Counted from the stretch's first letter, positions 10,001-38,401 are shown. The stretch is DNA of 64,000 nt from an uncultured Anaerolinea sp. (GCA_964503145.1 CAZCYV010000009.1:47874-111873); one strand, 5' to 3'. Notes: a model not told the origin generated them from the sequence alone. Numbers and translations: made by a program.

Positions 10001-10946
10001 TGTGATGGAAAAAGGCACCTGCCAGGGCCTGGAAGAAGTGCCCCAGGCAATCCGGCAGGTCTTTGTCGTCTCGCAGGATATCACCGCCGAGGAGCATGTG
10101 CGGCTGCAGGCGGCGCTGCAAGCCTTTGTAGATAACAGCCTGAGCAAGACGGTCAACTTCCCTGAGAGTGCCACCGAGGCCGATGTGGCCACGGCTTACC
10201 AGCTCGCCTGGGAGTTGGGCTGCAAGGGGATCACGGTTTACGTCACCGGCTCGCGCCAGAAGGTCGTCCTGGAGACCAAAGCCACCGCCCGCCAGAAGGG
10301 CGAGATCGTCGAGCCTGCCCCTGCTCTCCCATCTGAGCCGAAGCAATTGACCATCTGGCATGACAAAAAGAAACCGCGCCCACGACGCCTGCGCGGCCAC
10401 ACGATCAGCGTGGAGACCCCGCTGGGCAAGGCTTTCGTCACCGTGAACGAGAATGGCGGCGGGCAGCCTTTCGAAGTCTTCGTCAACACTTCCAAGGCTG
10501 GCTCGGACACTGCTGCGGTCTCCGAAGCGATTGGCCGTCTGATCTCCTATATCTTGCGCCTGGCGTCGCCGGTGGCCCCACGCGAGCGCTTGAAGGAAGT
10601 CTGGCGCCAGCTTTCCGGCATTGGCGGTGGGCGTTCGCTGGGCTTTGGCCCCAACCGGGTGCGTTCTCTGCCCGATGGCGTAGCGCAGGCATTGGCCGAA
10701 TACCTGGAAAACTCGAACGCCCAGGAGGATGACGAGGCTCAAGACGGCGATGAAGATGCCGCTGCTGACGGCAATGGCTTCAACATGCTGCAAGAAAGCG
10801 CGCGGCTATCGGACGCTGAGGCAGACGCCGGCTGGGCATCTCAGACGCACAAGATCGGCGATCTATGCCCGGAGTGTGGACAGGCCTCAGTCGTTAATGA
10901 AGAAGGCTGTCGCAAGTGCTATGCCTGTGGATATAGCGAGTGCTGA
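7086..10946 (+). CDS. nrdJ: adenosylcobalamin-dependent (class II) ribonucleotide reductase, intein-containing precursor
   Basis: 1286-aa ORF. The exteins carry class II RNR motifs, including TNP|CGEQ split by the intein. GGGAGAG RBS. The C-terminal tail is CPECG...[12 protein letters not shown]. Confidence 0.88.
8043..9272 (+). mobile_element. intein (410 aa) with a LAGLIDADG homing-endonuclease domain, inserted in nrdJ
   Basis: Starts with Cys (TGT 8043-8045) right after ...EATNP. Ends ...GFVAHN (AAT 9270-9272) and is followed by Cys+1 (TGC 9273). Block-B-like TATADHRF is present. Two LAGLIDADG-like motifs occur: [12 protein letters not shown] (about 8520-8565) and [15 protein letters not shown] (about 8808-8850). 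Confidence 0.88.
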
Positions 10947-11019: not shown

Positions 11020-11955
11020 TCAATCGGAGGATTGGTGCGGCAGGCGCGGCCGGGTATCGCGTTCGATATCCAGGCGATGCAGGATGCGCGCGGCTCTCTT
11101 GGAAGGCACGACCTGTGAGCCGTAACGGTTGGCCAGTACCTGGGTGAGCTTGGCCCCGAACAGGACAATGTTCATCGAAAAATTGACCCACACCAGGATC
11201 AGGATCACCGAGCCGGTCGCTCCATACGCGCTGAACACCCCCACATTTCCCAGATACACCCCGAACAGAAAACCGCCGATCGTGAACAGCAGCGAAGTCG
11301 TTGCTGCGCCGATCAAAACATCCCGCCAGGCAGTTTGAGCGTCCGGCAGCATTTTGAAGATGATCGCGAACAGCATCAGAAAGCCCAGGAAAGCCAGGCC
11401 GAAATCGGCTTCGGGCAACTCCTTCACCAGCGACGGGGGCAAGAATTGTAGGAACTGGTTGATCGACACCACCAGCGTGCTGGCCACCATCAGCGCCAGC
11501 AGGATCACGATCACTACAAACACCATCATGAAAGACAGAAAGTGGGTGCGAAGAATAACGAATATCCCGTGCTTGGGGTGCGGCGCAATCCCCCACAAAA
11601 TGTTGATTGCCTTTTTCATATGCACGAAGACCATTGATGCGCCGATCAGTGTGAGCATCACTCCCATCGAGGCTGCCAGTCCGCTGCCTTTGGGAAAGTT
11701 TCCATTCTCGATTACGGTGCGCAGAGCAAGCGCCGTCTGGGGGCTGACGACGGTTGCCACTTCATCGACCAGCCGCTCCGTTACTGCTTTCTCGCTGAAG
11801 ATCATCCCTGTGACAGAGACTGCAATAAACAGCAGCGGCGCCATCGAGAAGGTTGTGTAAAATGAAAGAGCCGCTGCCAGCATGAAGCCATTCGCTTGTA
11901 CCCAGCCCTGGTAGATCTCTCTTAACAGGGAGAGCGTTTCCTTGGCGTATTTCAT
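11020..11955 (-). CDS. YihY/BrkB (ribonuclease BN-like) family membrane protein
   Basis: Multi-TM protein with the family-typical N-terminus FMLAAALSFYTTFSMAPLLFIAVSV. The start is taken at MKYAKE (ATG 11955) rather than the track start at 12048. Confidence 0.7.
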   Translation of the reverse strand: MKYAKETLSLLREIYQGWVQANGFMLAAALSFYTTFSMAPLLFIAVSVTGMIFSEKAVTERLVDEVATVVSPQTALALRTVIENGNFPKGSGLAASMGVMLTLIGASMVFVHMKKAINILWGIAPHPKHGIFVILRTHFLSFMMVFVVIVILLALMVASTLVVSINQFLQFLPPSLVKELPEADFGLAFLGFLMLFAIIFKMLPDAQTAWRDVLIGAATTSLLFTIGGFLFGVYLGNVGVFSAYGATGSVILILVWVNFSMNIVLFGAKLTQVLANRYGSQVVPSKRAARILHRLDIERDTRPRLPHQSSD

Positions 11956-12050
11956 GCTTTGTATTATACCCCTTCTCTGCGCTTGAACAAACCTGGTCGC
12001 TATGTTATAGTTAGCGCGCAATTCATCCTGCCTGAACGTGAGGTCCAACC

Positions 12051-12689
12051 ATGGCCAAACACATCATCGTCCTGGCCGGCAACATCGGCGCTGGGAAGAC
12101 GTCTCTGACCGAACTGTTGGGCGGGCGCCTGGGCTGGCAGACTGCCTTCGAGTCAGTGGCGGATAACCCCTACCTGCCCGATTTCTACGCCGACATGCGC
12201 TCCTGGTCCTTTCATTTGCAGATCTTTTTCCTGGGTCACCGCGCCCGTCAGTATCTGGAACTGGCCAATTCCCCCCAGTCTGCTATCCTGGATCGCAGCA
12301 TCTATGAGGACGCTTACATCTTCGCGCGCGCCTTGCATCATATGGGCAACCTGAGCGAGCGCGACTATCTGGCTTATCGAACGGTCTTTGATCTGATCGT
12401 GGCCAAGTTGCCGCCTCCGGACCTGCTCATCTACCTGCACGCGCCCGCCAGGGTGCTCATCGAGCGCATCCGTCGCCGCGGCCGGGCGATCGAAGGCGGC
12501 ATCACCCTGGAATATCTGACCTTGCTCGAATCGTTCTACGAGGACTGGCTGCGCAGCTTCGATGTCTGCCCGGTGTTGACCATCCGCACCGATGATCTGG
12601 ACTTCGTCCATAAGTCGCGCCATCTGGATATCGTCGTCGAGCGCATTCAAGATAAGCTCGCCGGGCGGGAGGAGCTGGTCTTCGAATAA
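12051..12689 (+). CDS. deoxynucleoside kinase (dCK/dGK family)
   Basis: P-loop GNIGAGKTSL, DRS-like LDRSIYEDA and an Arg-rich lid IERIRRRGRAIE; 212 aa. Confidence 0.85.
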   Translation: MAKHIIVLAGNIGAGKTSLTELLGGRLGWQTAFESVADNPYLPDFYADMRSWSFHLQIFFLGHRARQYLELANSPQSAILDRSIYEDAYIFARALHHMGNLSERDYLAYRTVFDLIVAKLPPPDLLIYLHAPARVLIERIRRRGRAIEGGITLEYLTLLESFYEDWLRSFDVCPVLTIRTDDLDFVHKSRHLDIVVERIQDKLAGREELVFE

Positions 12690-12712
12690 GTGCGCTGAAA
12701 AAGCCTGGCAAA

Positions 12713-12751
12713 AGCGATGAACAGCGGCCTACGCGGCCGCTGTTCATCGCT
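12713..12751. terminator. 17-bp perfect hairpin between convergent genes
   Basis: AGCGATGAACAGCGGCC-tacgc-GGCCGCTGTTCATCGCT. It abuts the stop codon of the minus-strand gene. Confidence 0.55.
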
Positions 12752-13746
12752 TAAAACAACATCTTCACTACGGTATCCACGATCAAGCCGAGCAGATACA
12801 GAATACCAAATTCGCGGTTGTGGTAGAACGCCGCAGCGACGAAATAATTCGGCCAGACATCCGGGAAATCGGCTGGCTTTTCGCTGGGCTTGGGGGCGCG
12901 GAAGATCGGGTACACTCTGGCGAAGGCGCGCAGCGCCGCCAGCACGATCAGCAGGACCGGCGTGAAGAAGCGGGTGATCACCAGGTAGATCGTAAAGAGA
13001 TATTGCAGAACCAGCATTCCCACGACGACCACGCGCGAGGTCTTTTCCCCCAATAACACCGGCAGCGTATGAATGCGCCTGGCTTTGTCCATCTCGAACT
13101 TGTCGATGTGCTTGCCGAAAATCACCCCGGTGACTCCCAGCGCGTAGGGTAGCCCGGCAATGACCACGTTCCAGTCCCAGTTGCCGGTGATCACGTAGTA
13201 GCCGCCGCCGATCATCAGCGGGCCCCAGACGATCAGCACGGCAATTTCTCCTAAGGCGATGTACTTGAGCGGCCAGGTGTAGAACAGCACGAAGAACGCG
13301 CCCAGCCCAAGCAAGAGCAACGTCAGCCCGCCGCGGGCGTACACCAGGATCGCCCCGCAGGCCAGGGCGATCAGCCCGGTGACTGCGGCGTAAGTCAGGA
13401 GTTGGCGTTTGGTCATCAGCCCATGCACCAACGGCTGCGGGCCATATTGGGCGCGATAGTAGTTGTCCTGATCCACGCCGCGGGTGTAATCGGTGTAGTC
13501 GTTGAGCAGGTTGTTGGCGGCATGCGCCATGATCAGCCCGAGGGTCATCAGGAACCAATACCAGAAGTTGAACTGCCGGCTCTGGATCGCCAGGATGCCG
13601 GCGATTGCGCCGGAGAGAAAGGTCATGATCAACACCGCGGCGCGGGTGGAGATGAGCCACTTCGAGATCACATCCAGTTGTTCCCACTCTTCTTTGCTGA
13701 CATGAGGGATCACCCGCAGAGCTTTACGCCACATGGCGACGTTCAT
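12751..13746 (-). CDS. UbiA-family prenyltransferase, MenA (1,4-dihydroxy-2-naphthoate polyprenyltransferase)-like
   Basis: Polytopic membrane protein with the Asp-rich motif NNLLNDYTDYTRGVD. The start is taken at MNVAMW (ATG 13746) with an AGGAGG RBS; the track start at 13803 overlaps the upstream gene. Confidence 0.7.
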   Translation of the reverse strand: MNVAMWRKALRVIPHVSKEEWEQLDVISKWLISTRAAVLIMTFLSGAIAGILAIQSRQFNFWYWFLMTLGLIMAHAANNLLNDYTDYTRGVDQDNYYRAQYGPQPLVHGLMTKRQLLTYAAVTGLIALACGAILVYARGGLTLLLLGLGAFFVLFYTWPLKYIALGEIAVLIVWGPLMIGGGYYVITGNWDWNVVIAGLPYALGVTGVIFGKHIDKFEMDKARRIHTLPVLLGEKTSRVVVVGMLVLQYLFTIYLVITRFFTPVLLIVLAALRAFARVYPIFRAPKPSEKPADFPDVWPNYFVAAAFYHNREFGILYLLGLIVDTVVKMLF

Positions 13747-24613: not shown

Positions 24614-25312
24614 TCAATCGGGCGGCCGCCTCAACCGTCGCAGCATCCCGTACAGGCTCGCCAGCGCAAAGATCCCGACCACCGCAAGCCCGCCCTGGAG
24701 CATGCTGCTCAGCACCTGCGCCCGGCTCAGGATGGCGGGGTTGGGCGGCAGCGGCGTGGAAGTCGGCGGGCGCGGAGTTCCTGTCGGGGCGGGCGTAGCG
24801 CTGGGGATCGGCGTGTCCTGCGGCAGCGGGGTGGGGCTGGGGGTGACCGGGGTTGGCGTATCGCTTTCGATTGCCGTGTAGTTGCGCACCCGCAACCCGG
24901 CCGCCAGAGCGGTCTGCTGCGATCCATCAGCCAGTCTGATGGTCAGCCGCAGGGTGTACACCCCGTCGCTGATCTGGCTGGTGTCCCACTGCGTCAGCGC
25001 CTGGCCCGTAACCGGCTGGCTGCCCTGAAAGATCGGGAACCAGGTGCCGGTCGGGTCACTGGCATAAGCAAAGGTTAGTTCGAGCGCTTCGAAGCCCTCG
25101 ACCGGCGTGTCCACCACGATCGGCACGGCGCCCTGCAGCGCCTGGCCCGGGAGCGGCGACAGTATGGCGGCCGAATGCGGCGCTGTCTCAGGAGCGCTCG
25201 CCGGCGGCGTCGGGCTGGCCGTCGCCTGCGCCTGGAAAGCGCGCGCTGGCGCCGCCCACAGACAGGCCAGCGCCGCCAGGCAAAACCCCAGGAAGCTCAA
25301 ACATCGCCGCAT
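24614..25312 (-). CDS. secreted hypothetical protein: signal peptide, Ig-like domain, Pro/Thr linker, C-terminal TM anchor
   Basis: Signal peptide MRRCLSFLGFCLAALACLWAAPARA, a PT-rich stretch TPTPVTPSPTPLPQDTPIPSATPAPTGTPRPPTSTP, and a terminal TM followed by RRLRRPPD. Confidence 0.55.
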   Translation of the reverse strand: MRRCLSFLGFCLAALACLWAAPARAFQAQATASPTPPASAPETAPHSAAILSPLPGQALQGAVPIVVDTPVEGFEALELTFAYASDPTGTWFPIFQGSQPVTGQALTQWDTSQISDGVYTLRLTIRLADGSQQTALAAGLRVRNYTAIESDTPTPVTPSPTPLPQDTPIPSATPAPTGTPRPPTSTPLPPNPAILSRAQVLSSMLQGGLAVVGIFALASLYGMLRRLRRPPD

Positions 25313-25387: not shown

Positions 25388-25416
25388 TTGACATTTCAGG
25401 CCATATTAGTTACAAT
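25388..25416 (+). promoter_or_regulatory. sigma-70-like promoter of the gcvT-like operon
   Basis: TTGACA (25388-25393), a 17-nt spacer, then TACAAT (25411-25416). Confidence 0.6.
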
Positions 25417-25474
25417 TCCCTCGTCTGCTGGGGGAGCTCCCGCCAGCCGTAATCCATCCTTTGTTGGAGCGCCG

Positions 25475-26677
25475 ATGCCCCTGCCCACTCCCTTTCACCC
25501 CCGCCAGGCCGCCGCCATGGAAAGCCATGAATGGCGCAATTGGGCCGGTTACCTGGCCGCGGCGGTTTACGAGCCCGGCCACGAGCGCGAATATTTCGCC
25601 ATCCGCAACGCCGCGGCGCTGATCGACGTCTCGCCGCTGTTCAAGTATTCCTTTCGCGGTCCGCAGGCGCTGGCGGCGCTGAACCGTATCGTCACCCGCG
25701 ACCTCAGCCGCTGCGCCGTCGGCCAGGTGATCTACACCCCCTGGTGCGACGACGACGGCCAGGTGATCGACGACGGCACACTGCACCGCCTGGCAGACGA
25801 CGAATTCCTGCTCACCTCGGCAGAACCCTGCCTGGCCTGGCTGCAGGACGCCGCCTATGGCCTGGAGGTGCGCATCCGCGATCGCTCGGCGGAGCTGGCG
25901 GCGGTCGCCGTACAGGGGCCGCTCAGCCGCCAACTGCTCAAAGAAGTGGTGCAGGGCGCCGACCTGGACGGGCTGCGCTATTACCGCCTGACGCGGGGTA
26001 GTTTTCGCGCCTCCGGCGGCGAATTCCCGCTGACCATCTCCCGCACCGGCTACACCGGCGACCTGGGTTACGAGCTTTGGCTGGCGCCGGAAGCCGCCCC
26101 CGCCCTCTGGGAGCGGCTGCTCGCCGCCGGCGAAGGCTATGGGGCGCTGCCCGCCGGCATCGCCGCCCTCGACATCGCCCGCATCGAAGCCGGTCTGATC
26201 ATGCTCCAGGTGGATTACATCTCCTCCCGCCTGGCGCTGATCGAGGAGCAGAAATCTTCGCCCTACGAGCTGGGGCTGGGCTGGGCGGTGGCGCTGGACA
26301 AGCCGCACTTCATCGGCCGCCGGGCGCTGCTGGCGGAAGCGCAGCGCATCCCGGAATGGGTCTTGACCGGCGTGGAGGTGGACTGGCAGGCCCTGAGCGC
26401 CCTCTATGCCGCGGTCGGGCTGGCCCCTCAGGTCGCCGGGCGCGCCTCGCGCCAGGCCGCGCCGATCTATCAGGGGCGGCGCCAGGTCGGTTACGCCACC
26501 AGCCACACCTTTTCGCCGCTGCTCAAGAAATATATCGCCCTGGCGATCCTCAAACCGCAGGCGGCTACTGCCGGCGCGGAGCTGGAATTCGAAGTGACCG
26601 TGGAGCATGTCCGCCGCCGGGCGCGGGCGCGCCCGACGCCGCTGCCGTTCTTTAACCCGCCGCGCAAACGGGATTGA
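25475..26677 (+). CDS. aminomethyltransferase-family (GcvT/DmdA-like) folate-binding protein
   Basis: About 400 aa with the GcvT fold signature (FAIRNAAALIDVSPLFKY..., ISRTGYTGDLGYELW). The start is taken at MPLPTPF (ATG 25475), downstream of the promoter. Confidence 0.8.
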   Translation: MPLPTPFHPRQAAAMESHEWRNWAGYLAAAVYEPGHEREYFAIRNAAALIDVSPLFKYSFRGPQALAALNRIVTRDLSRCAVGQVIYTPWCDDDGQVIDDGTLHRLADDEFLLTSAEPCLAWLQDAAYGLEVRIRDRSAELAAVAVQGPLSRQLLKEVVQGADLDGLRYYRLTRGSFRASGGEFPLTISRTGYTGDLGYELWLAPEAAPALWERLLAAGEGYGALPAGIAALDIARIEAGLIMLQVDYISSRLALIEEQKSSPYELGLGWAVALDKPHFIGRRALLAEAQRIPEWVLTGVEVDWQALSALYAAVGLAPQVAGRASRQAAPIYQGRRQVGYATSHTFSPLLKKYIALAILKPQAATAGAELEFEVTVEHVRRRARARPTPLPFFNPPRKRD

Positions 26678-26695
26678 GCAGAAAGGAAAACGAAA

Positions 26696-28273
26696 GTGCA
26701 GGATTACGACGCCATTGTGATCGGCGGCGGGCATAACGGCCTGGTCAACGCCGCCTATCTGGCCAGGGCTGGCAAAAGGGTGCTGCTCCTGGAACGCCGC
26801 CCGCTGCTGGGCGGGGCCACGGCGACCGAGGAGATCGTCCCGGGCTTCAAATTCACCGTTTTCTCCTACGTCGTCAGCCTGCTGCGCCCCGAAATCGTGC
26901 GTGAACTGAACCTGCCCGCCCACGGGCTGACGGTGCTGCCGCTGGAAAGCACCCTCTCGCCCACCCCAGAGGGCGGTTTTCTCTTCCGCGACGGCGATCA
27001 CTACCGCACCTATCAGTCCATTGCCCGCTTTTCGCCGCGCGATGCCGACGCCTACGCCGATTACAGCCGCACGATGTATTTCATGGCCAAAGCGGTCAAG
27101 ACCGTCCTGGGGATCATCCCGCCGGACCCGGCCAGCTTTCACCCCGCCGACCTGCTGGGGCTGGCGCGGCTGGCGCGGGAATACCTGAACCTGCCCGCCG
27201 AGCAGTTCCACACCCTGGCGCGGCTGATGACGATGAGCGCAGCCGACTTCGTGGAGCGCTGGTTCGAATCCGAGCCGCTGCGGGGGACGCTCTCGGCCAG
27301 CGGGATCATCGGTACCTTCTTAGGCCCGCGCTCGCCCGGCACCGCCTATGTCCTGCTGCATCACTATATGGGCGAGATCGACGGCGTATTCCGCGCCTGG
27401 GGTTTCGCCAAGGGCGGCACGGGGGCCATCGCCGCGGCGATCGCCAGCGCGGCGCGCGCCCTGGGCGTCGAGATCCGCACCGAGGCGGAGGTCGCCCAGG
27501 TGCTGGTGCGCGACGGGCGCGCCTACGGCGTGGCGCTGGCCAACGGTGACGAAATCCATGCCCGGCGCATCGTCTCCAGCCTCGACCCGCGCCAGACCTT
27601 CGAGCGCTTTATCGAGCCGCGCTGGCTGCCGCCGGAGACGCTCGCCGACGTGCGCCGCTATCTCTACCGCGGCTCCTCCGGCAAGGTCAACCTGGCGCTG
27701 GATGGCCTGCCGGAGCTGGCCTGCTGGCCCGGCCGTGGGCGGCACCTGGCCGGGGCGATCTCGATCAGCCCCAGCGTGAAATACATCGAACAGGCCTACG
27801 ATCACGCCAAATACGGCGCTTTCTCCCCCCGCCCTTACATCGACATCATTCTGCCCTCGATGATCGACCCTGACATGGCTCCGCCCGGCAAGCATGTGAT
27901 GTCGTGCTTCGTGCAATACGCCCCCTACCACCTGCGCCAGGGGACGTGGGACGAACAGCGCGAAGCTTTCGGCGAGGCGGTGATCGACACCCTGAGCGAA
28001 TATTTCCCCAACCTGCGTTCGCTGATCGTCGGCAAACAGGTGCTCACCCCGCTCGATATCGAGCGCCGCACCGGCCTGACGGAGGGCAACATCTTCCAGG
28101 GCGAGCTCAGCCTTTCGCAGCTCTTCTTCCTGCGCCCGGCGCCCGGGCTGGCGCAATACAAGACGCCGGTGCGCGGCTATTATCAGTGCGGCTCGGCCTC
28201 ACATCCGGGCGGAGGGATCACCGGCGCGCCGGGTAGGCTGGCGGCGCTCGCCATTTTGAAGGATTGGAACTGA
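26696..28273 (+). CDS. FAD-dependent oxidoreductase, phytoene-desaturase (CrtI/COG1233) superfamily, PYROXD2-like
   Basis: GTG start. Dinucleotide-binding YDAIVIGGGHNGLVNAAYLARAGKRVLLLERRPLLGGA and a C-terminal GSASHPGGGITGAPG. Confidence 0.8.
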   Translation: MQDYDAIVIGGGHNGLVNAAYLARAGKRVLLLERRPLLGGATATEEIVPGFKFTVFSYVVSLLRPEIVRELNLPAHGLTVLPLESTLSPTPEGGFLFRDGDHYRTYQSIARFSPRDADAYADYSRTMYFMAKAVKTVLGIIPPDPASFHPADLLGLARLAREYLNLPAEQFHTLARLMTMSAADFVERWFESEPLRGTLSASGIIGTFLGPRSPGTAYVLLHHYMGEIDGVFRAWGFAKGGTGAIAAAIASAARALGVEIRTEAEVAQVLVRDGRAYGVALANGDEIHARRIVSSLDPRQTFERFIEPRWLPPETLADVRRYLYRGSSGKVNLALDGLPELACWPGRGRHLAGAISISPSVKYIEQAYDHAKYGAFSPRPYIDIILPSMIDPDMAPPGKHVMSCFVQYAPYHLRQGTWDEQREAFGEAVIDTLSEYFPNLRSLIVGKQVLTPLDIERRTGLTEGNIFQGELSLSQLFFLRPAPGLAQYKTPVRGYYQCGSASHPGGGITGAPGRLAALAILKDWN

Positions 28274-28274
28274 G

Positions 28275-29888
28275 ATGATGGCGCAAAACCGTTTCGATGT
28301 GATCATCATCGGCGGCGGACACAACGGGCTGACCGCCGCGGCAAGCCTGGCGCAGGCCGGGTTGAAGCCGCTGGTGGTCGAACGCCGGCGGGTGCTGGGG
28401 GGCGCGGCGGCCACGGAGGAGGTCTTCCCCGGCTTCCAGGTGAACACCGGCGCCGGCGATGTCGGCCTGTTCCGGCCTGAAATCATCCGCCAGCTACAAC
28501 TGGAAAGCTACGGCCTGCGTTTCCTGGAAAGCCCGGCGCAGTGCGTGACGCTGCTGCCAGATGGCGGGTCATTGACGCTGTGGCGCGATCCGCAGCGAGC
28601 GCAGCAGGAGATCGCCCGCTTCTCGTCCGCCGACGCGCGGCGTTACGCCGATTTCCTGGCCTGGCTGGAGGCCGCCCGCCGCGCCCTGCGGCCGTTTTTG
28701 CTGACCGCGCCGCCGAACCTGCCGGGGGCGCGCCTGGATGAACTCGCCCCCTGGTTCGGGCCGGCGCTGGGGCTGCGGCGGCTGGGGCGGCGCAGAATGA
28801 TGGATTTGTTGCGGGCGCTGCCGATGGCGGCTGAGGACTGGCTGGCTGAATGGTTCGAACTGCCGGCGCTCAAGGCTTCGCTGGCCGCGCTTGGCCTGCG
28901 CGGGGCGCGCCTGGGGCCTAAGGCCCCCGGTACGACCTTTCTGCTGCTCTACCATGCCCTCGGCGGGCGGGCGGGCGAGTTTGTCTCCAGCCGCTTCGTA
29001 CAGGGGGGCAGCGGGGCGCTCTCCCAGGCGCTGGCCGCCGCCGCCCGCAGCCACGGCGCTGAAATCGTGACCGGCCTGGGAGCGGCGCAGGTGCTGGTGC
29101 GCGAAGGCCGCGCCGTCGGCGTGGCGCTGGAGGATGGCCTCGAGGTCTTTGCGCGGGCGGTGATCTCGAACGCCGACCCGCGGCGCACCTTCCTCGATCT
29201 GGTCGGGCCGCAACACCTGGAAGTGCGTTTCGTCCGCGATGTGCGCCTGCTGCGCTTCCAGCCCAGCCTGGCGCGCCTGCTGTTGACCACCGCCGGCCTG
29301 CCGCGCTTCCGCGCCTTTGCGGCGGGGCCTCCTGAGGGCGAGAAGGCCGCGCTGGGAGGGCATCTGCTCACCGCCTGCGACCTGGAAACGCTGGAACGCG
29401 CCGCCGACGCGGCGAAATATGGGCAATTGCCGTCTGCGCCGGCGCTCGACCTGTTGATCCCGACGGTGTTAGACCCCTCTCTGGCGCCCGCCGGCAAACA
29501 CCTGCTGAGCGTGGATATCGCCTTCGTCCCTGCCGAACCCCGACAGGGGAGCTGGGAGCAGCTCCGCCTGCCGCTGGCAGAGCAGGTCATCTCGCTGCTC
29601 GAAACGTTGGCGCCCGGCCTGCGGTCGTCCATCGAGAATTGCGAAGTGATCACCCCGCAGGATTACGCCGAGGAATACAGCCTGCCGGACGGCGATCCCT
29701 ATCACGGCCAAATGGGGCTGGATCAGTTCTTTTTCATGCGCCCGCTTCCCGGCTGGGCGCGCTACCGCACCCCCCTGACGGGGTTGTACCTGGGCGGCTC
29801 TGGGGCGCACCCTGGCGGCGGCGTCACCGGCGCGCCGGGCTTCCTGGCTGCCCAGGCCGTATTGCAAGATTTGAAGGAGTTGCGATGA
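28275..29888 (+). CDS. second FAD-dependent oxidoreductase of the same CrtI/PYROXD2-like family (tandem paralog)
   Basis: FDVIIIGGGHNGLTAAASLAQAGLKPLVVERRRVLGGA and C-terminal GGSGAHPGGGVTGAPG. Starts 1 nt after the previous stop. Confidence 0.8.
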   Translation: MMAQNRFDVIIIGGGHNGLTAAASLAQAGLKPLVVERRRVLGGAAATEEVFPGFQVNTGAGDVGLFRPEIIRQLQLESYGLRFLESPAQCVTLLPDGGSLTLWRDPQRAQQEIARFSSADARRYADFLAWLEAARRALRPFLLTAPPNLPGARLDELAPWFGPALGLRRLGRRRMMDLLRALPMAAEDWLAEWFELPALKASLAALGLRGARLGPKAPGTTFLLLYHALGGRAGEFVSSRFVQGGSGALSQALAAAARSHGAEIVTGLGAAQVLVREGRAVGVALEDGLEVFARAVISNADPRRTFLDLVGPQHLEVRFVRDVRLLRFQPSLARLLLTTAGLPRFRAFAAGPPEGEKAALGGHLLTACDLETLERAADAAKYGQLPSAPALDLLIPTVLDPSLAPAGKHLLSVDIAFVPAEPRQGSWEQLRLPLAEQVISLLETLAPGLRSSIENCEVITPQDYAEEYSLPDGDPYHGQMGLDQFFFMRPLPGWARYRTPLTGLYLGGSGAHPGGGVTGAPGFLAAQAVLQDLKELR

Positions 29889-31018
29889 ACGAGGCGATTT
29901 ATCTCCCGGCTCCCCAGGTCTTCCAGGCAGGGGCATGCACCCTGCCCGGCCGCTATTACACCGACCCCGGCATCTTTGCCCAAGAAATGGAACGCATTTA
30001 CGGCCGCCGCTGGCTCTGCGCCGGACGAAGCGCCCTGATCGAGCGCCCTGGCCAGTACACCCAGGTGGAAATCGGCGTCGAAAGCCTGATCCTGACCCGC
30101 GCCGCCGACGGCAAAGCGCGGGCGTTCTTCAACGTTTGCCGCCATCGCGGCACGCGCTTGTGCGATTCGCCGGAAACGCGCACCGCCAACAGCATCCAAT
30201 GCCCCTATCACGCCTGGACCTACGCCCTGGACGGGCGGCTGATCGGCGCGCCGCTGATGGACGAAGCGCCCGGTTTCCGCAAAGAGGATCACGGCCTGCA
30301 CCCCGCCGCCCTGGCGGAGTGGGAAGGCTTCCTGTTCGTCAACCTGCAGCCGCAGGCGGCGCCCTTTGAGAGCGATTTTGCCCCGCTGGCGGAGAAGTTT
30401 TCCGCCTGGGGGCTGCCCGGCCTGCGCGCCCTGCGCCGCCAGGAGTACGACGTGCGCGCCAACTGGAAGCTGATCGTCCAGAATTATTCCGAATGCTACC
30501 ACTGCCCGCTGATCCATCCTGACCTTGCGGCGCGCTCGCCCTATCGCAGCGGGCGCAACGATCTGTACCGCGGCCCCTTCCTGGGCGGCTACATGGAGTT
30601 GAACGAGCAGTACGGCAGCCTGACGTTGAGCGGCCGCGCCTGCGCCCCGCCGTTGCCGGGGGTCGCTGCCGAAGACCACGCCCGCGTGTATTATTACTCG
30701 ATCTTTCCCAACCTGCTGCTCAGCCTGCACCCCGATTACGTCATGGCGCACACCCTGTGGCCCCAGGCGCCCGACCGCACGCGCATCGTCTGCGAGTGGC
30801 TCTTCGACCCCGCCCAGCAGGGCCAGCCCGGCTTCAATCCCGATGACGCAGCCGGCTTTTGGGATATGACCAACCGCCAGGACTGGCGCGTGTGCGAGCT
30901 TTCACAGCAAGGGGTCAGCTCGCGCGCCTACGCCCCCTCGCCCTACGCCCCTGGCGAGGCGCTGCTGGCGGCCTTCGATGAGGAATACCTGCGGGCGCTG
31001 GAAGGAGAGGCGGCGTAA
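29885..31018 (+). CDS. Rieske [2Fe-2S] non-heme-iron oxygenase, alpha-subunit type
   Basis: Rieske motif CRHRGTRL...CPYHAW and iron site NYSECYHCPLIHPDL. ATG 29885 overlaps the upstream stop (ATGA); the track start at 29639 overlaps the previous gene. Confidence 0.82.
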   Translation: MNEAIYLPAPQVFQAGACTLPGRYYTDPGIFAQEMERIYGRRWLCAGRSALIERPGQYTQVEIGVESLILTRAADGKARAFFNVCRHRGTRLCDSPETRTANSIQCPYHAWTYALDGRLIGAPLMDEAPGFRKEDHGLHPAALAEWEGFLFVNLQPQAAPFESDFAPLAEKFSAWGLPGLRALRRQEYDVRANWKLIVQNYSECYHCPLIHPDLAARSPYRSGRNDLYRGPFLGGYMELNEQYGSLTLSGRACAPPLPGVAAEDHARVYYYSIFPNLLLSLHPDYVMAHTLWPQAPDRTRIVCEWLFDPAQQGQPGFNPDDAAGFWDMTNRQDWRVCELSQQGVSSRAYAPSPYAPGEALLAAFDEEYLRALEGEAA

Positions 31019-31166: not shown

Positions 31167-31673
31167 TCAGCGCCGCTCAGCGCCGGCCAGCGCCTGTTCG
31201 ATGTCCCTAACCCGGTGATAGGCCGAGTGCCCGTCCAGGTCATACGGCCACTCCGGGTTGCGCTCCCGGCCGCTGAACCACTCCTCCGGCGCCGCCCTCA
31301 GCGTTGCCAGCAGTTCCTCCTGCACCTGCCGGTGCCAGGCCAGCACTTCCTGCGGCGAACGCTCGCGCCAGCGCAGATAAACCAGACGGTTGCTCTCCGT
31401 CTCGTTCAGCCCACGCTCCTCGGCCGGCGGGCGCTCCCCCCGGGCCCTGCGCGCCACCCCTGCCTTCCAATGCGTGATGTGCGCCAGCGCATCCTTCACC
31501 GTCCAAGGATCCTTCGTCTCCGGGCGGGGCAAGGGCCGTTCCCACTCCTCCGCCGATAGCCCCGCCACCAGCCTATCCAGCAACTCGAACTCCCGGACGG
31601 CGCGTTCGATCACTTCATCACGGTTATGACGCATCAACATCTGCGGCCTCCTGGCGGTCCAATCCATTATCAC
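31167..31673 (-). CDS. DinB-superfamily four-helix-bundle protein (ClbS/DfsB- or MDMPI_N-like)
   Basis: 168 aa with WTVKDALAHITHW and a C-terminal H..YH..R pattern. The family assignment is tentative. Confidence 0.4.
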   Translation of the reverse strand: MIMDWTARRPQMLMRHNRDEVIERAVREFELLDRLVAGLSAEEWERPLPRPETKDPWTVKDALAHITHWKAGVARRARGERPPAEERGLNETESNRLVYLRWRERSPQEVLAWHRQVQEELLATLRAAPEEWFSGRERNPEWPYDLDGHSAYHRVRDIEQALAGAERR

Positions 31674-33901: not shown

Positions 33902-34954
33902 ATGCGCACGCTCGAATGGGTTTCAACGCACAATACGCTGGTGATGATCGATCAGCGGCTCTTGCCGGGCGAATTTCGCCAGGTCGAGTACACCGATTAT
34001 CGCCAGGTGGCCGCCGCCATCCGCGACATGGTGGTGCGCGGCGCGCCGGCCATCGGCGCTGCCGCTGCCTTTGGCCTGGCGCTGGCGGCGCGCAACTCAT
34101 CCGCCTACAGCCTGGCCGGGTTGCGCGCCGACCTGGAGCAGGCTGCCGCCGTCTTGCAGGCGGCGCGCCCCACCGCGGTCAACCTGTCCTGGGCGCTGCG
34201 GCGGGTGTTGCAGCGCGCCGCAGCCTACTCCGGCGCGCCCGACGGCCTGCGGGAAGCGGTGCTGGATGAAGCCCAGCGCATCGCCGACGAAGATGTGGCC
34301 ATCAACCTGGCCATGGCCCGCCACGGCGCCGACCTGATTGCCGATGGCGACACCGTGATTCACCACTGCAACACCGGCGCTCTGGCCGCCGTGGATTGGG
34401 GTACCGCTCTGGGGGTGATCCGTATGGCGCACGAGCAGGGCAAGCGCGTGCATGTGCTGGTGGACGAGACCCGCCCGCGCCTGCAAGGCGCCCGCCTGAC
34501 CGCCTGGGAGCTGAGCCGCTATGGCATCTCTTACGAGATCATCGTCGATGGCGCTGCGGGCTACTTCCTGCGCACCGGCAGGGCGCAGAAGGTGTTCTTC
34601 GGCGCCGACCGCGTGGCGGCCAACGGCGATGTGGCCAACAAGATCGGCACCTATATGCTCGCCCTGGCCGCCCACGATAACGCCGTCCCGGCCTACGCCG
34701 TCGTGCCCACCTCCACCATCGACCTCTCCCTGGCCTCCGGCGACCAGATTCCCATCGAAGAGCGCAGCCCGGCGGAAGTGCTCGATCTGCAGGCCGCCGG
34801 CCAGCCGGTCGCCCCGCCCGGCGCCGCCGCCCGCAACCCCGCCTTTGATGTCACCCCGGCCCGCTTGATCTCGGCCATCGTCACCGAGAACGGCGTGGTC
34901 TTTCCCCCGTTTTCCGAGAATTTGCCCCGAGCAGTCAGCGGTAAATTGGGGTAA
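33902..34954 (+). CDS. mtnA: S-methyl-5-thioribose-1-phosphate isomerase (eIF-2B-related family)
   Basis: [18 protein letters not shown]...[19 protein letters not shown] and CNTGALA...[18 protein letters not shown]; 350 aa. Confidence 0.88.
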
Positions 34955-34976
34955 AATAGCTTTTCGTGGTTCGGCT

Positions 34977-37246
<2,270 letters not shown>

Positions 37247-37249
37247 ACC

Positions 37250-38401
37250 ATGTTTTTCGACCGCGCCCAGCTCGAAGAAATCGAAGAACAGAGCCTGGCG
37301 CCATACGCCTGCCACAGTCGCCGCTCCAAGGGCCGTGAATACCCGGAAGACGAGCCGGAGTACCGCACGGCCTTTCAGCGCGACCGCGACCGCATCCTGC
37401 ATACCACCGCCTTCCGCCGCCTGGAATACAAGACCCAGGTGTTCATCAACTACGAGGGTGATTACTACCGCACGCGCCTGACGCACACCCTGGAGGTCTC
37501 GCAGCTTGGGCGCACCATCGCCCGCGCCCTGGGCGCCAACGAAGACCTGGTGGAAGCCATCTGCCTGGCGCACGACCTGGGCCACAGCGCCTTCGGCCAC
37601 GCCGGAGAAGTGGCCCTGGCGCGCCTGATGAAGGACTACGGCGGCTTCGACCACAACAAGCAATCCTTGCGCATCGTCACCATCCTGGAGCGGCGCTATC
37701 CCGATTTCCCCGGCCTGAACCTGACCTGGGAATTGCGCGAGGGCATCGTCAAGCACGAATCAGAATACGATGTCGCCGACGCCAGCCAGTACAACCCGGA
37801 GCTGCGCGGCCACCTGGAGGCGCAGATCGCCAACGTCGCCGACGAACTGGCCTACACCGCCCACGACCTGGACGACGGCCTGCGCTCGGGCATGCTCACC
37901 CCGGCGATGCTCGAGGGCGTCACCTTGTGGGAGATCCTGGTCGAGAGCGTCGGCCTGGAATCGGCTGTTCTGGACGACCTGGCGCGCCACCGCCTGATCC
38001 GCCGCCTGATCGGCATGGAGGTCAGCGACCTGGTGCACACCACCCACGAGCGCCTGCGCGAAAGCCGCGTCCGCTCGGTGGAGGAGCTGCAGAGCCTGCC
38101 CTATAACATCATCAGCTACAGCGAAGACATGCACCGCCGCAACCGCCAGCTCAAGGATTTCCTCTACGCCAGGCTCTACCGCCACCCGCGGGTGGTGCGC
38201 ATGCAGGTCAAGTCGGAGCGCATCATCACCGATCTGTTCAACGCTTTCCGCGCCGAGCCGGAAATCCTGCCACGCCAGTTCCAGCAGCAGGCGGAGGTCT
38301 TTGGCCTGGAGCGCGTCATCTGCGATTATATTGCCGGGATGACCGATCGTTACGCTATCGAAGAACATCAGAAGCTGTTCGATCCGCTGATCAAGCCCTG
38401 A
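37250..38401 (+). CDS. dGTPase-like HD-domain triphosphohydrolase
   Basis: FQRDRDRILHTTAFRRLEYKTQV, RLTHTLEV and LAHDLGHSAFGH; 383 aa. Confidence 0.85.
   Translation: MFFDRAQLEEIEEQSLAPYACHSRRSKGREYPEDEPEYRTAFQRDRDRILHTTAFRRLEYKTQVFINYEGDYYRTRLTHTLEVSQLGRTIARALGANEDLVEAICLAHDLGHSAFGHAGEVALARLMKDYGGFDHNKQSLRIVTILERRYPDFPGLNLTWELREGIVKHESEYDVADASQYNPELRGHLEAQIANVADELAYTAHDLDDGLRSGMLTPAMLEGVTLWEILVESVGLESAVLDDLARHRLIRRLIGMEVSDLVHTTHERLRESRVRSVEELQSLPYNIISYSEDMHRRNRQLKDFLYARLYRHPRVVRMQVKSERIITDLFNAFRAEPEILPRQFQQQAEVFGLERVICDYIAGMTDRYAIEEHQKLFDPLIKP

Follow-up and report, generated by a model that had tools for sequence, protein, structure and literature searches.

Operon organisation

The window analysed here is a 64-kb stretch of DNA from an uncultured Anaerolinea sp. 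Read from its sequence, it contains four tightly packed genes on the plus strand, encoding a GcvT-like folate protein, two flavoproteins (here FlvA and FlvB) and a Rieske oxygenase, downstream of one sigma-70-like promoter (Table 1). The promoter matches the consensus at 11 of 12 positions and is the best, and the sole 11/12, site between 24500 and 32000, a region in which two promoter-like sites were observed against 0.7 ± 1.0 in shuffled sequences. Coordinate 25388 belongs to the − 35 box (and is also the TTG of a mechanically called open reading frame) and is not the start of a coding sequence. The GcvT-like gene starts at the downstream ATG, with similarity to the folate domain of TMAO demethylase beginning at residue 5; the protein has 400 residues in the NCBI copy and 386 in the JGI call.

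The GTG start of FlvA follows the end of the GcvT-like gene after 18 nt, a single nucleotide separates FlvA from FlvB, and the TGA of FlvB overlaps the ATG of the Rieske gene as ATGA. This promoter and these spacings had been described in the first-pass annotation and all are present in the sequence; its statement that a cognate reductase or ferredoxin gene is lacking also holds across the called genes, which cover positions ~ 1–60000 of the window. None of the four proteins reaches a curated equivalog cut-off in NCBIfam, and the AlphaFold model is poor (pLDDT 61).

Table 1 Features of the operon (positions within the window)
Feature	Position	Strand	Details and basis
Sigma-70-like promoter	25388–25416	+	TTGACA 25388–25393, 17-nt spacer, TACAAT 25411–25416
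GGAG ribosome-binding site	25466–25469	+	5 nt ahead of ATG 25475; read in sequence
GcvT-like tetrahydrofolate-binding protein, 400 aa	25475–26677	+	Pfam, NCBIfam and PDB matches
FlvA, PYROXD2-type FAD flavoprotein, 525 aa	26696–28273	+	Pfam Amino_oxidase and NAD_binding_8; PYROXD2 alignment
FlvB, FlvA paralog, 537 aa	28275–29888	+	41% identity to FlvA; FAD motifs kept
Rieske non-haem-iron oxygenase alpha subunit, 377 aa	29885–31018	+	Pfam Rieske and Ring_hydroxyl_A

The GcvT-like folate protein

In Pfam the first protein matches GCV_T (207 bits) and GCV_T_C (49 bits). Its top NCBIfam match is the C-terminal folate domain of TMAO demethylase (Tdm) at 283 bits, with GcvT at 209 and SoxA at 161 bits; the cut-offs for housekeeping GcvT are not reached. 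The top PDB match is likewise the folate domain of Tdm (9q5a, 184 bits), with which it aligns end to end over Tdm residues 411–784 and better than with true T-proteins. The motifs IDVSPL, GQVIDDG and TGYTGDLGYE of the T-protein and Tdm are all kept. Nothing in it corresponds to the catalytic N-terminal half of Tdm (profile positions 1–387), and we therefore regard the protein as a C1-capture module only, predicted to trap a methyl-derived C1 unit. The S-methyl substrate (DMSP) that the first-pass annotation had allowed is without support, as the DmdA model gives only 113 bits against a cut-off of 410.

The protein also matches the folate domains of the DMGDH, SARDH, DMGO and nicotine-pathway MABO enzymes (1pj5, 101 bits; 4p9s, 71 bits). 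These combine an FAD N-methylamine dehydrogenase with a GcvT-type tetrahydrofolate (THF) domain to give 5,10-methylene-THF, much as envisaged here. They differ in that their flavin domain is of the DAO family and is fused to the folate domain in a single chain, whereas the flavoproteins of the window are PYROXD2/CrtI-like, paired paralogs and unfused to GcvT; no such fusion was found among the best 120 matches.

The flavoproteins FlvA and FlvB

The two flavoproteins are tandem paralogs, as first proposed, being 41% identical over 526 residues. Their resemblance to PYROXD2, originally noticed at the N-termini, is real and extends over the full length, with identities to mouse PYROXD2 of 39% for FlvA (E = 3e-128) and 37% for FlvB (E = 4e-104). 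A neighbour-joining tree (calculated, like that of the Rieske proteins below, without support values) places FlvA and PYROXD2 in one clade and FlvB in a separate clade. Of 119 columns conserved in FlvA, 96 are identical in four mammalian PYROXD2 sequences and 39 are kept in FlvB, including the FAD-binding glycines and the C-terminal HPGGG motif. Family signature residues, among them Y58, S61, W235, Y218, F405 and N465, are common to FlvA and PYROXD2 and lost in FlvB. On these comparisons FlvA is the apparent bacterial counterpart of human PYROXD2, with similarity at the level of orthology, and FlvB is evidently a fast-evolving paralog of FlvA. We predict that FlvA is an N-methylamine dehydrogenase and that FlvB is a second amine dehydrogenase or a partner subunit.

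The Rieske oxygenase

Both motifs reported in the first-pass annotation, CRHRG...CPYHAW and ECYHCPLIHP, are present in the Rieske protein; in the alignment with Stc2 the latter falls on the iron-site motif ECYHCSSNHP. Residues H206, H211 and D333 align with H204, H209 and D360 of Stc2; the 2-His-1-Asp iron site and the bridging Glu of the ECYHC motif are kept, as in Stc2 and CntA. The protein groups with quaternary-amine and N-demethylating oxygenases and not with aromatic ring dioxygenases: the NCBIfam model for GbcA gives 207 bits (cut-off 670) against 91 for the top aromatic model, and in the PDB Stc2 (174 bits) and CntA (143 bits) exceed all aromatic enzymes (≤ 119 bits). We assign it to the GbcA/Stc2/CntA group as a predicted hydroxylase of quaternary or cationic N-methyl groups.

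Its closest solved relatives, Stc2 (3vca) and CntA (6y8j), share with it the CxH/CxxH Rieske motif, the iron motif N-x-x-E-C-Y-H-C-x-x-x-H-P, the C-terminal Asp ligand and the lack of a linked beta-subunit gene. The likeness has limits: the top-scoring aligned stretch is restricted to residues 19–219, the catalytic domain is diverged (43 bits) and the protein is shorter (377 residues compared with 391–412). A further difference is the lack of a linked partner reductase, and none was found adjoining the Rieske gene in any locus examined.

Conservation and gene neighbourhood

This is a real and widely conserved bacterial operon. Among 80 metagenome loci centred on FlvA, 55 of 56 have a second, FlvB-type flavoprotein gene 3' of FlvA and 33 of 37 have a GcvT gene no more than 2.5 kb upstream. 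A Rieske gene accompanies this triad in 8 of the 80, or 3 of the 22 in which both flanks are long enough to judge. In the set centred on the Rieske gene, 15 of 80 genome loci hold the complete cluster side by side and six more contigs, which are truncated, hold portions of it; no triad is found within 8 kb of most Rieske orthologs. Individual look-ups found all four genes with 5/6 other homologs. The four-gene linkage spans at least eight phylum-level lineages, including Gemmatimonadota, Acidobacteriota, Marinimicrobia, Bacteroidota and Eisenbacteria, in three different gene orders (gene calls in the fetched loci were crude, relying on a GC3 filter).

Thus, the four genes of the first-pass annotation are co-conserved, but the Rieske gene is not a fixed member: the conserved core is the triad GcvT–FlvA–FlvB and the Rieske gene is an accessory present in a minority of loci. 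In the neighbour-joining tree, Rieske genes from the cluster branch among those that occur alone, and the two kinds are therefore taken as one orthogroup. Since each mostly occurs without the other, the Rieske protein and the triad may not always share one pathway.

Recurrent neighbours are PurU, amino-acid permeases (15 + 5 loci), ArgE/DapE deacylases, citrulline/arginine-type hydrolases, class-III transaminases (8 loci), Xaa-Pro-dipeptidase-like amidohydrolases (8 loci) and N-methyltryptophan oxidase. A PurU equivalog lies immediately 3' of FlvB in seven loci, and an N-methyl-L-tryptophan oxidase equivalog adjoins Rieske pairs. One locus (L159) is a tight seven-gene operon of permease, ArgE/DapE deacylase, ADI/DDAH-like hydrolase, GcvT, FlvA, FlvB and Rieske genes, and another (L157) apparently holds the same operon, judged from gene lengths alone; a CtlX citrulline hydrolase lies upstream of GcvT in L081. 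The neighbouring genes point to THF-linked catabolism of N-methyl amino acids, and the sets vary by lineage, indicating different substrates.

A proposed pathway

We found no published description of this operon in the literature. Our preferred reading, to which we give a probability of about 0.65, is that it encodes THF-coupled oxidative N-demethylation of an N-methylated amino acid or betaine. The stepwise oxidative demethylation suggested in the first-pass annotation is thus supported, and Rieske grouping, synteny and carotenoid context were all checked without any of them speaking against it. All catalytic steps and the substrate are our proposal, built on the observed domain families, orthology-level similarity to PYROXD2, gene linkage and neighbours.

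The Rieske oxygenase would hydroxylate a methyl group on a nitrogen without a free lone pair, for example a quaternary trimethylammonium, using two electrons from a reductase encoded elsewhere, and the product would collapse to a tertiary amine and a C1 unit. FlvA and FlvB, acting sequentially or as a heteromer, would then use FAD to dehydrogenate the tertiary and subsequently the secondary N-methylamine to iminium ions. The GcvT-like protein would bind THF and take up the carbon of the iminium ion or of formaldehyde to form 5,10-methylene-THF, as do the folate domains that are fused into dimethylglycine and sarcosine dehydrogenases, SoxA and TMAO demethylase. In related loci PurU would recycle the folate.

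The leading substrate candidates are the methyl-lysines and glycine betaine. We tentatively place Nε-tri-, di- and mono-methyl-lysine or related methylated basic amino acids first and glycine betaine (followed by dimethylglycine and sarcosine) second, neither with high probability. Other amino-acid betaines (hercynine, hypaphorine, stachydrine, N-terminally methylated dipeptides) are possible at lower odds, and free tri- or dimethylamine is rather doubtful.

Alternative explanations

Could the flavoproteins instead serve the Rieske protein? FlvA and/or FlvB would then be the missing reductase, and the operon a three-component oxygenase with a folate protein. For Anaerolinea thermophila and Fervidobacterium, a 2017 survey named a nearby 'phytoene dehydrogenase' as putative Rieske oxygenase reductase (PMC5209329). 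No locus examined links a canonical reductase or ferredoxin to this Rieske family, and the Rieske start codon overlaps the FlvB stop codon. We nevertheless consider the electron-transfer role put forward in the first-pass annotation unlikely, as a nearby Rieske gene is missing from most triads and a nearby Flv gene from most Rieske orthologs, and amine oxidation, not a reductase role, accounts for the linkage to PurU and GcvT. Pfam finds a single dinucleotide-binding region in each Flv protein, and flavoproteins of the CrtI/amine-oxidase type are not known to carry an NAD(P)H domain of their own. Mammals have PYROXD2 yet, as far as we know, no Rieske oxygenase of the GbcA/Stc2/CntA group. Less probable again is O-demethylation of methoxylated aromatics or ring hydroxylation by a LigM/DesA-like THF O-demethylase and a VanA-like Rieske protein. 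LigM and DesA are in the GcvT family, but match weakly (57 and 51 bits, far below Tdm, GcvT and SoxA), and although the Pfam catalytic-domain model is named after ring-hydroxylating enzymes, GbcA, Stc2 and CntA outscore every aromatic enzyme. The surroundings hold amino-acid permeases, peptidases and transaminases, with no beta subunit and no genes of aromatic catabolism. The least probable alternative is that FlvA and FlvB are CrtI/CrtO-type carotenoid or isoprenoid desaturases or ketolases beside GcvT and Rieske genes by coincidence. They share the broad FAD-binding fold superfamily of CrtI, CrtO and CrtD, carry the database name 'phytoene dehydrogenase-like', have CrtO beta-carotene ketolase as their top NCBIfam match (293 and 279 bits) and have CrtI (4dgk) and CrtD (4rep) as nearest solved structures by sequence. 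These scores are, however, far under the cut-offs (1000 for CrtO; 238 for crtI_fam, observed 116–124), CrtI is a distant match (E = 2e-18) compared with PYROXD2 (E about 1e-128), and the linkage to GcvT is near-universal. The Pfam families and clusters most often met in ~ 170 related loci include no carotenoid gene, whether phytoene synthase, cyclase or another.

A more specific and more plausible proposal, though still a minority one, is that the Rieske protein acts as glycine betaine monooxygenase and the flavoproteins as dehydrogenases of dimethylglycine (FlvA) and sarcosine (FlvB), ending in glycine. Betaine is abundant in soils, three oxidoreductases would equal its three methyl groups, GbcA is the top NCBIfam model for the Rieske protein and JGI labels many of its orthologs 'glycine betaine catabolism A'. 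Near the cluster there are glycine-cleavage P-protein genes (GcvP1/P2) and an MttB-family gene in L086, and an OpuAC-type ABC transporter in L087. The Pseudomonas pathway (GbcAB, DgcAB, SoxBDAG) is similar in that three N-methyl groups are removed oxidatively and stepwise, the quaternary amine is the target of a Rieske oxygenase of the same subgroup, the C1 unit passes to a GcvT-like folate domain in SoxA and purU is often linked. In the window operon, by contrast, the later steps would fall to two PYROXD2/CrtI-type flavoproteins, with neither DgcAB nor a DAO-family sarcosine oxidase involved; the folate protein is a polypeptide of its own, a linked GbcB-type reductase is missing and the Rieske protein, far under the cut-off, is not a GbcA equivalog. 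The deacylases, citrulline/arginine-type hydrolases, transaminases and dipeptidase-like amidohydrolases are superfluous for betaine, and a BCCT transporter was seen in no locus. The genetics of PYROXD2 favour methyl-lysines, N-methylpipecolate and tri- or dimethylamine, and the mQTL studies consulted give no link of its locus to dimethylglycine or sarcosine (PMC5780481, PMC3169529, PMC8109053).

Relation to human PYROXD2

PYROXD2 differs from FlvA in being a single mitochondrial gene whose product has an N-terminal extension, and we know of no operon partners or FlvB-type paralog for it. No member of the family has a known reaction or solved structure, and PYROXD2 therefore cannot yet define the function of FlvA; the operon gives the human protein a testable function. 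[quoted passage not shown] The missense variant rs2147896 accounts for ~ 50% of the variance of plasma N6-methyllysine and 48% of that of N6,N6-dimethyllysine, and shows association with trimethyllysine and N-methylpipecolate as well (PMC8109053; PMC5780481). Strong control of N6-methyl-lysines, trimethylamine and dimethylamine by human variants at this locus fits the N-demethylation reading. The variant residue, 461, sits within the motif F-x-Q-Y-x-P-Y, which is invariant from FlvA to PYROXD2.

Layout and surroundings of the operon

The operon consists of a GcvT-like gene, the gene for a PYROXD2-type FAD flavoprotein (FlvA), that for its tandem paralog (FlvB) and a Rieske oxygenase gene. The consensus-like promoter and the tight gene spacing described in the first-pass annotation were both found again. 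The promoter is the sole 11/12 match between 24500 and 32000, a stretch with 2 promoter-like sites against 0.7 ± 1.0 in shuffles. The start assigned to the feature, 25388, is that of the −35 box and not of the first coding sequence, whose ATG at 25475 follows a GGAG. This start codon is supported by homology to the TMAO demethylase Tdm from residue 5 on and by the NCBI copy of the protein, which also has 400 residues.

Features of the operon and its surroundings in the window
Feature	Position	Strand	Remarks
Promoter	TTGACA 25388-25393, TACAAT 25411-25416	+	17-nt spacer; read in the sequence
GcvT-like gene	25475-26677	+	400 aa; 18-nt gap before FlvA
FlvA	26696-28273	+	525 aa; 1-nt gap before FlvB
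FlvB	28275-29888	+	537 aa; ATGA overlap with Rieske gene
Rieske gene	29885-31018	+	377 aa; last gene of the operon
ORF upstream of the operon	24614-25312	-	232 aa; divergent; no Pfam match
Promoter-like site of this ORF	25352-25324		TTGACC, 17-nt spacer, TAAACT; weaker
DinB_2/MDMPI_N protein gene	~31167-31640	-	convergent with the end of the Rieske gene
mtnA (IF-2B family), PfkB kinase, S-adenosylhomocysteine hydrolase	33902-37362	+	3 kb downstream of the operon
Ribonucleotide reductase large subunit	7086-10946	+	1286 aa; intein with LAGLIDADG homing-endonuclease domain

The neighbouring genes are housekeeping genes, with mfd, pth and an unknown ORF on the opposite strand on the upstream side, and a DinB-family gene, an esterase and mtnA-pfkB-ahcY downstream. 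The region of mtnA and the hydrolase comprises methyl-cycle and methionine-salvage genes. The remaining annotated window holds the dcw cell-division cluster, ribonucleotide reductase (with the NrdR gene immediately upstream of the large subunit gene), SRP genes and ABC exporters. Among the called genes, which cover roughly positions 1-60000, there is no reductase, ferredoxin or betaine transporter, in agreement with the earlier statement that a cognate reductase or ferredoxin gene is missing; gcvH and gcvP are likewise absent from this range. A riboswitch or leader RNA ahead of the operon was rejected, no Rfam family matching at gathering score anywhere in the window and no inverted repeat being present in the 168-nt intergenic region upstream.

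FlvA and FlvB resemble PYROXD2

Both flavoproteins are FAD proteins of the amine-oxidase/CrtI superfamily and, at 41% identity to each other, are tandem paralogs as originally described. Aligned over its full length with mouse PYROXD2 (545 columns), FlvA shows 39% identity (E = 3e-128); FlvB shows 37% (E = 4e-104), which confirms the resemblance noted at first. The mammalian sequences carry the name PYROXD2 in NCBI and UniRef. The nearest solved structure by sequence, CrtI (4dgk), gives an E value of only 2e-18. CrtO is the top NCBIfam model, with 292.8 bits for FlvA and 278.9 for FlvB against a cut-off of 1000, and crtI_fam gives 115.6 and 124.2 against 238.1. On sequence grounds, we assign both proteins to the PYROXD2 family, to which they are clearly closer than to CrtI. 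The closest relatives of FlvA among the matches listed are 73-75% identical and labelled Chloroflexi or Anaerolineales.

In a neighbour-joining tree of 55 sequences without bootstrap or other support values, PYROXD2, represented by mammalian sequences only, falls inside the FlvA-type superclade, and the FlvB proteins form a separate clade with longer branches. The signature columns, 119 in all, were those with at least 93% conservation among 28 FlvA-type proteins. Four PYROXD2 sequences, all mammalian, have the identical residue at 96 of them, and 22 FlvB proteins keep only 39 at a level of at least 90%. FlvB retains the FAD-binding glycines, E33 and the C-terminal HPGGG motif and has lost Y58, S61, Y218, W235, F405 and N465.

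A structural argument for the function of the flavoproteins was dropped. The model was poor (pLDDT 61, pTM 0.54), and Foldseek returned CrtD and CrtI, then NicA2 and MAO-type amine oxidases, at TM-scores of 0.3-0.4 and rmsd of 16-17 Å, to which we give no weight. A Rosetta-stone fusion of FlvA with GcvT was also rejected, none being present in the best 120 matches of a concatenated FlvA+GcvT query. In one metagenome protein of 1037 residues (P0246), FlvA (residues 1-498, C-terminal FAD motif missing) runs into a complete FlvB. We regard this protein as a probable artefact of assembly or of a frameshift, as it comes from a single 4.3-kb contig and lacks the FAD motif of FlvA; a natural fusion, if it were one, would favour a heteromer. 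Full-text literature searches found neither a published description of the gene cluster nor a reaction assigned to PYROXD2.

The Rieske and GcvT-like proteins

The Rieske protein contains Rieske (PF00355, 60.5 bits) and Ring_hydroxyl_A (PF00848, 171 bits) domains, and C85, H87, C106 and H109 are invariant in 23 Rieske orthologs. Its iron motif NYSECYHCPLIHP and D333 align with the stachydrine demethylase Stc2 (3vca) such that H206, H211 and D333 correspond to H204, H209 and D360, which we take to be the iron ligands of Stc2. With the cluster motif and a 2-His-1-carboxylate site both present, it is predicted to be the alpha subunit of a Rieske non-haem-iron oxygenase. The GbcA equivalog NF058607 is the best-scoring model although its 206.8 bits lie below the cut-off of 670, and exceeds the top aromatic model (207 against 91 bits). 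Among PDB sequences, Stc2 (174 bits), 3n0q (168) and the carnitine oxygenase CntA (143) rank ahead of the aromatic dioxygenases, none of which is above 119. The protein is therefore not grouped with the aromatic ring dioxygenases, and its earlier placement with the betaine and carnitine enzymes stands; it falls in the quaternary-amine and N-demethylase subgroup, outside the GbcA equivalog itself. A linked reductase for it was looked for and rejected. No GbcB-type reductase is present in the window or among the commonest neighbour families of about 60 related loci, and no reductase-type family is among the 25 commonest for 125 neighbours of clustered loci or for 131 neighbours of lone Rieske genes, for which no reductase recurs as a neighbour.

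The GcvT-like protein is a member of the GcvT/aminomethyltransferase superfamily, with PF01571 at 207.2 bits (cut-off 25.6) and PF08669 at 48.9 bits (cut-off 25.9). Its top NCBIfam and PDB match is the C-terminal folate domain of Tdm (283 bits; 9q5a, 184 bits), ahead of true T-proteins (209 bits; 1woo, 139 bits), SoxA (161), DMGO (101) and LigM/DesA (57 and 51). The Tdm model is matched at profile positions 388-760 of 763 only, and its cut-off is 1100. The housekeeping GcvT models (TIGR00528, 151 against 235.9; NF001567, 209 against 300) and the DmdA equivalog (NF009133, 112.6 against 410) are missed as well. Because it falls under every curated cut-off, the protein is neither a housekeeping T-protein nor Tdm. 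It shares the motifs IDVSPL, GQVIDDG and TGYTGDLGYE with both, but its 400 residues lack the N-terminal catalytic domain of full Tdm.

Conservation of the gene cluster

Relatives of the Rieske protein number in the thousands at 45-70% identity. Of 80 genome loci centred on them, 15 have all four genes side by side, and a further 6 truncated contigs hold part of the cluster. These loci belong to Gemmatimonadota, Longimicrobiales, Acidobacteriota (Vicinamibacterales and others), Thermoanaerobaculia, Marinimicrobia, Eisenbacteria and Bacteroidota, and two archaeal MAG contigs carry the Rieske gene with one Flv gene. The cluster occurs in three gene orders, so that linkage has been kept through rearrangement, and it is collinear in 5 of 6 further homologs looked up. 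Cluster-linked and lone Rieske genes are intermixed and follow taxonomy in a neighbour-joining tree without support values, from which we take them to be one orthogroup.

From the other side, we surveyed 80 metagenome loci with FlvA orthologs of 58-68% identity, in which our gene calls are crude. Where there is room for it, FlvA is followed by another Flv gene in the same orientation in 55 of 56 loci (the script gave 54, and L125, whose two Flv genes overlap, was added). Within 2.5 kb upstream of FlvA, 33 of 37 loci have a GcvT-like gene, which is co-directional in 12 and divergent in 21. FlvA has an adjoining Rieske ortholog in only 8 of 80, a count in which short flanks leave absence under-determined. 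As the Flv pair and GcvT are near-constant and the Rieske gene is not, the conserved functional unit is the triad of GcvT, FlvA and FlvB, with the Rieske oxygenase as an add-on. Co-conservation of the four genes was thus found, and the proposed four-gene unit holds for the linkage; the constant core is smaller by the Rieske gene. The operon has a very wide distribution among bacteria of soils, hot springs and the sea, which include Chloroflexota, Acidobacteriota, Gemmatimonadota, Marinimicrobia and Bacteroidota.

Genes found near the triad are an amino-acid permease (15 loci), a class-III transaminase (8), a Xaa-Pro-dipeptidase-like amidohydrolase (8), an S58 peptidase (3) and, immediately 3' of FlvB, the formyl-THF deformylase PurU above its equivalog cut-off (7). 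THF-linked N-demethylation operons, such as the sox and nicotine mabO-folD-purU clusters, typically have PurU as a companion. Around the four-gene clusters there are permeases (5 loci), Amidohydro_3 proteins (5), TonB-dependent receptors (4), and M20 and S51 peptidases. In one marine locus (L159), permease, ArgE/DapE deacylase, ADI/DDAH-like hydrolase, GcvT, FlvA, FlvB and Rieske genes abut as a seven-gene operon; a second (L157) has the same gene order and lengths, judged without a Pfam scan. In a third (L041) a hydrolase with a Pfam profile similar to that of the L159 enzyme abuts GcvT, and in a fourth (L081) the place upstream of GcvT is taken by the citrulline-utilisation hydrolase CtlX. 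DDAH at this place was rejected: the strong Pfam DDAH_eukar match in L081 is a CtlX equivalog, and L159 has an ADI/DDAH-like hydrolase without further classification. The idea of dimethylarginine as a feed for the pathway was dropped for this reason.

Proposed reaction and alternatives

A flavin amine dehydrogenase can act only on a nitrogen with a lone pair, which tertiary and secondary amines have and quaternary amines do not. For the quaternary ones, the established catalysts are Rieske enzymes of the GbcA/Stc2/CntA group. The anatomy of the operon fits a THF-coupled oxidative N-demethylation, of which we infer every step. From these properties of the two enzyme classes, the Rieske enzyme would remove the first methyl group and FlvA and FlvB the next two, each C1 unit being trapped on THF by GcvT. 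FlvB, the near-constant companion of FlvA, evolves faster, which is compatible with either a second-step enzyme of other specificity or a heteromeric partner. The general chemistry is known; the enzyme family predicted to perform it and its stand-alone folate partner are new.

The flavoproteins could instead be the reductase of the Rieske oxygenase, as a 2017 table suggests in naming a neighbouring 'phytoene dehydrogenase' as possible reductase, the sole related mention that we found (PMC5209329). In that source the Rieske oxygenase of Anaerolinea thermophila UNI-1, a cultured member of the Chloroflexota, lies apparently three genes from the 'phytoene dehydrogenase' (BAJ63376, BAJ63379), so that this strain may carry a related cluster. 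The triad occurs independently of the Rieske gene, which contradicts a reductase role of the flavoproteins, and we consider such a role unlikely. Aromatic or O-demethylation is contradicted by both the score ranking and the neighbours of the operon and is very improbable. We give hardly any credence to a carotenoid function of the flavoproteins, which both family scores and gene context contradict: their crtI_fam and CrtO scores lie below the cut-offs, and no carotenoid gene is among the commonest neighbour families of any locus examined, so that the carotenogenic context considered earlier was not found.

Substrates and the human protein

PYROXD2 is a mitochondrial protein, and variants at its locus are among the strongest human metabolite QTLs. 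The missense variant rs2147896 (p.Met461Thr) explains ~50% of the variance of plasma N6-methyllysine and 48% of that of N6,N6-dimethyllysine, and the locus is also associated with trimethyllysine, N2-acetyl methyl-lysines and N-methylpipecolate (PMC8109053; PMC5780481). Urinary trimethylamine and plasma dimethylamine are higher with lower PYROXD2 expression (PMC3169529). The associated metabolites belong precisely to the classes of tertiary and secondary N-methylamines. The variant residue, 461, is part of a motif, F-x-Q-Y-x-P-Y, that is invariant from bacterial FlvA through PYROXD2 and whose Phe is missing from FlvB. Biallelic PYROXD2 variants cause a severe infantile mitochondrial disorder (PMC8777681), and the function of the protein is still treated as unclear there and in a paper of July 2026 (PMC13352909).

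The operon adds independent gene-association evidence, in that the bacterial counterpart of PYROXD2 almost always has a folate C1-trapping protein as its neighbour, often PurU as well and sometimes a quaternary-amine Rieske oxygenase. This context points to a predicted FAD-dependent, folate-coupled N-demethylation of tertiary and secondary methylamines as the PYROXD2-type reaction. Bacterial context and human metabolite associations thus converge independently on a predicted N-demethylase function for PYROXD2 and FlvA, and the operon would provide methylated amino acids and betaines with a route not recognised before.

This may well be a family with several substrate specificities. The human data agree with methyl-lysines and related basic amino acids as substrates, and so do several neighbours, namely the permease, the ArgE/DapE deacylase, the arginine/citrulline-type hydrolases and the transaminase. 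In favour of glycine betaine are the top Rieske model, the GcvP and MttB genes nearby and the match of three oxidoreductases to three methyl groups. Neighbours of the MTOX (N-methyl-L-tryptophan oxidase), TDO (tryptophan 2,3-dioxygenase) and EgtD types agree with other amino-acid betaines, and both the likeness to Tdm and the QTLs for trimethylamine and dimethylamine agree with free methylamines.

An ε-alkyl-lysine demethylating activity (EC 1.5.3.4) was described in rat kidney in the 1960s, and to our knowledge no gene has been assigned to it. A more far-reaching, tentative proposal, to which we give a chance of roughly one in four, is that FlvA is the bacterial PYROXD2 ortholog, that the PYROXD2 family is the gene behind this orphan flavoenzyme of N6-methyl-lysine, and that the operon converts free Nε-trimethyl-lysine to lysine. 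The Rieske enzyme would then take tri- to dimethyl-lysine and FlvA and FlvB would take di- via monomethyl-lysine to lysine, with the methyl carbons conserved on tetrahydrofolate through the GcvT-like protein. If so, the operon would belong to a broader system by which bacteria salvage basic amino acids methylated after translation, which would explain the linked permease, deacylase and citrulline/arginine-type hydrolases.

Other arrangements in related loci

Near the cluster, L086 carries genes for an IclR regulator, an M20 peptidase, GcvP1/P2 and an MttB-family protein, and L087 those for an IclR regulator and an EgtD-EgtB fusion (11208-13559, -; Methyltransf_33 + DinB_2 + FGE-sulfatase), beside which DUF8230 and an OpuAC ABC transporter adjoin the cluster. 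In L089 the next gene after the Rieske gene, in the same orientation, is a DinB_2 gene (7831-8550, +). Together with the DinB_2/MDMPI_N gene of the window, the L087 and L089 neighbours may hint at hercynine or ergothioneine, or be coincidence. Two unrelated marine lineages have queuosine genes beside the cluster (L041:680-3627, L081:9134-9913); in a Marinimicrobia locus, QueC, a radical-SAM protein, a PTPS-family protein and QueF are directly upstream of hydrolase-GcvT-FlvA-FlvB-Rieske. A Vut_1-family transporter immediately follows the Rieske gene in a Saprospiraceae locus.

In Eremiobacterota and some Gemmatimonadaceae (L013, L015, L016, L026, L043, L053; for example L026:5332-6594 - and L026:6581-7597 -), the Rieske gene stands beside a Rieske paralog of 37-40% identity and the gene for an N-methyl-L-tryptophan oxidase equivalog (318.7 bits; cut-off 257), with a single FlvA-type flavoprotein a few kb away. 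The arrangement looks like an alternative demethylation cassette. In Verrucomicrobia (L008, L014, L020, L029, L060, L072), a lone Rieske gene is flanked by tryptophan 2,3-dioxygenase, DUF5069 and Amidohydro_2 genes and, from reading the sequence only, kynurenine monooxygenase-like and 3-hydroxyanthranilate dioxygenase-like genes. This context may reflect a link to a tryptophan-derived betaine or lineage-specific synteny. A conserved protein of ~499 residues without a Pfam match is encoded 3' of FlvB in five loci (L108:7165-8661 (+), with cluster mates in L094, L096, L114 and L117), in four of them directly after PurU.
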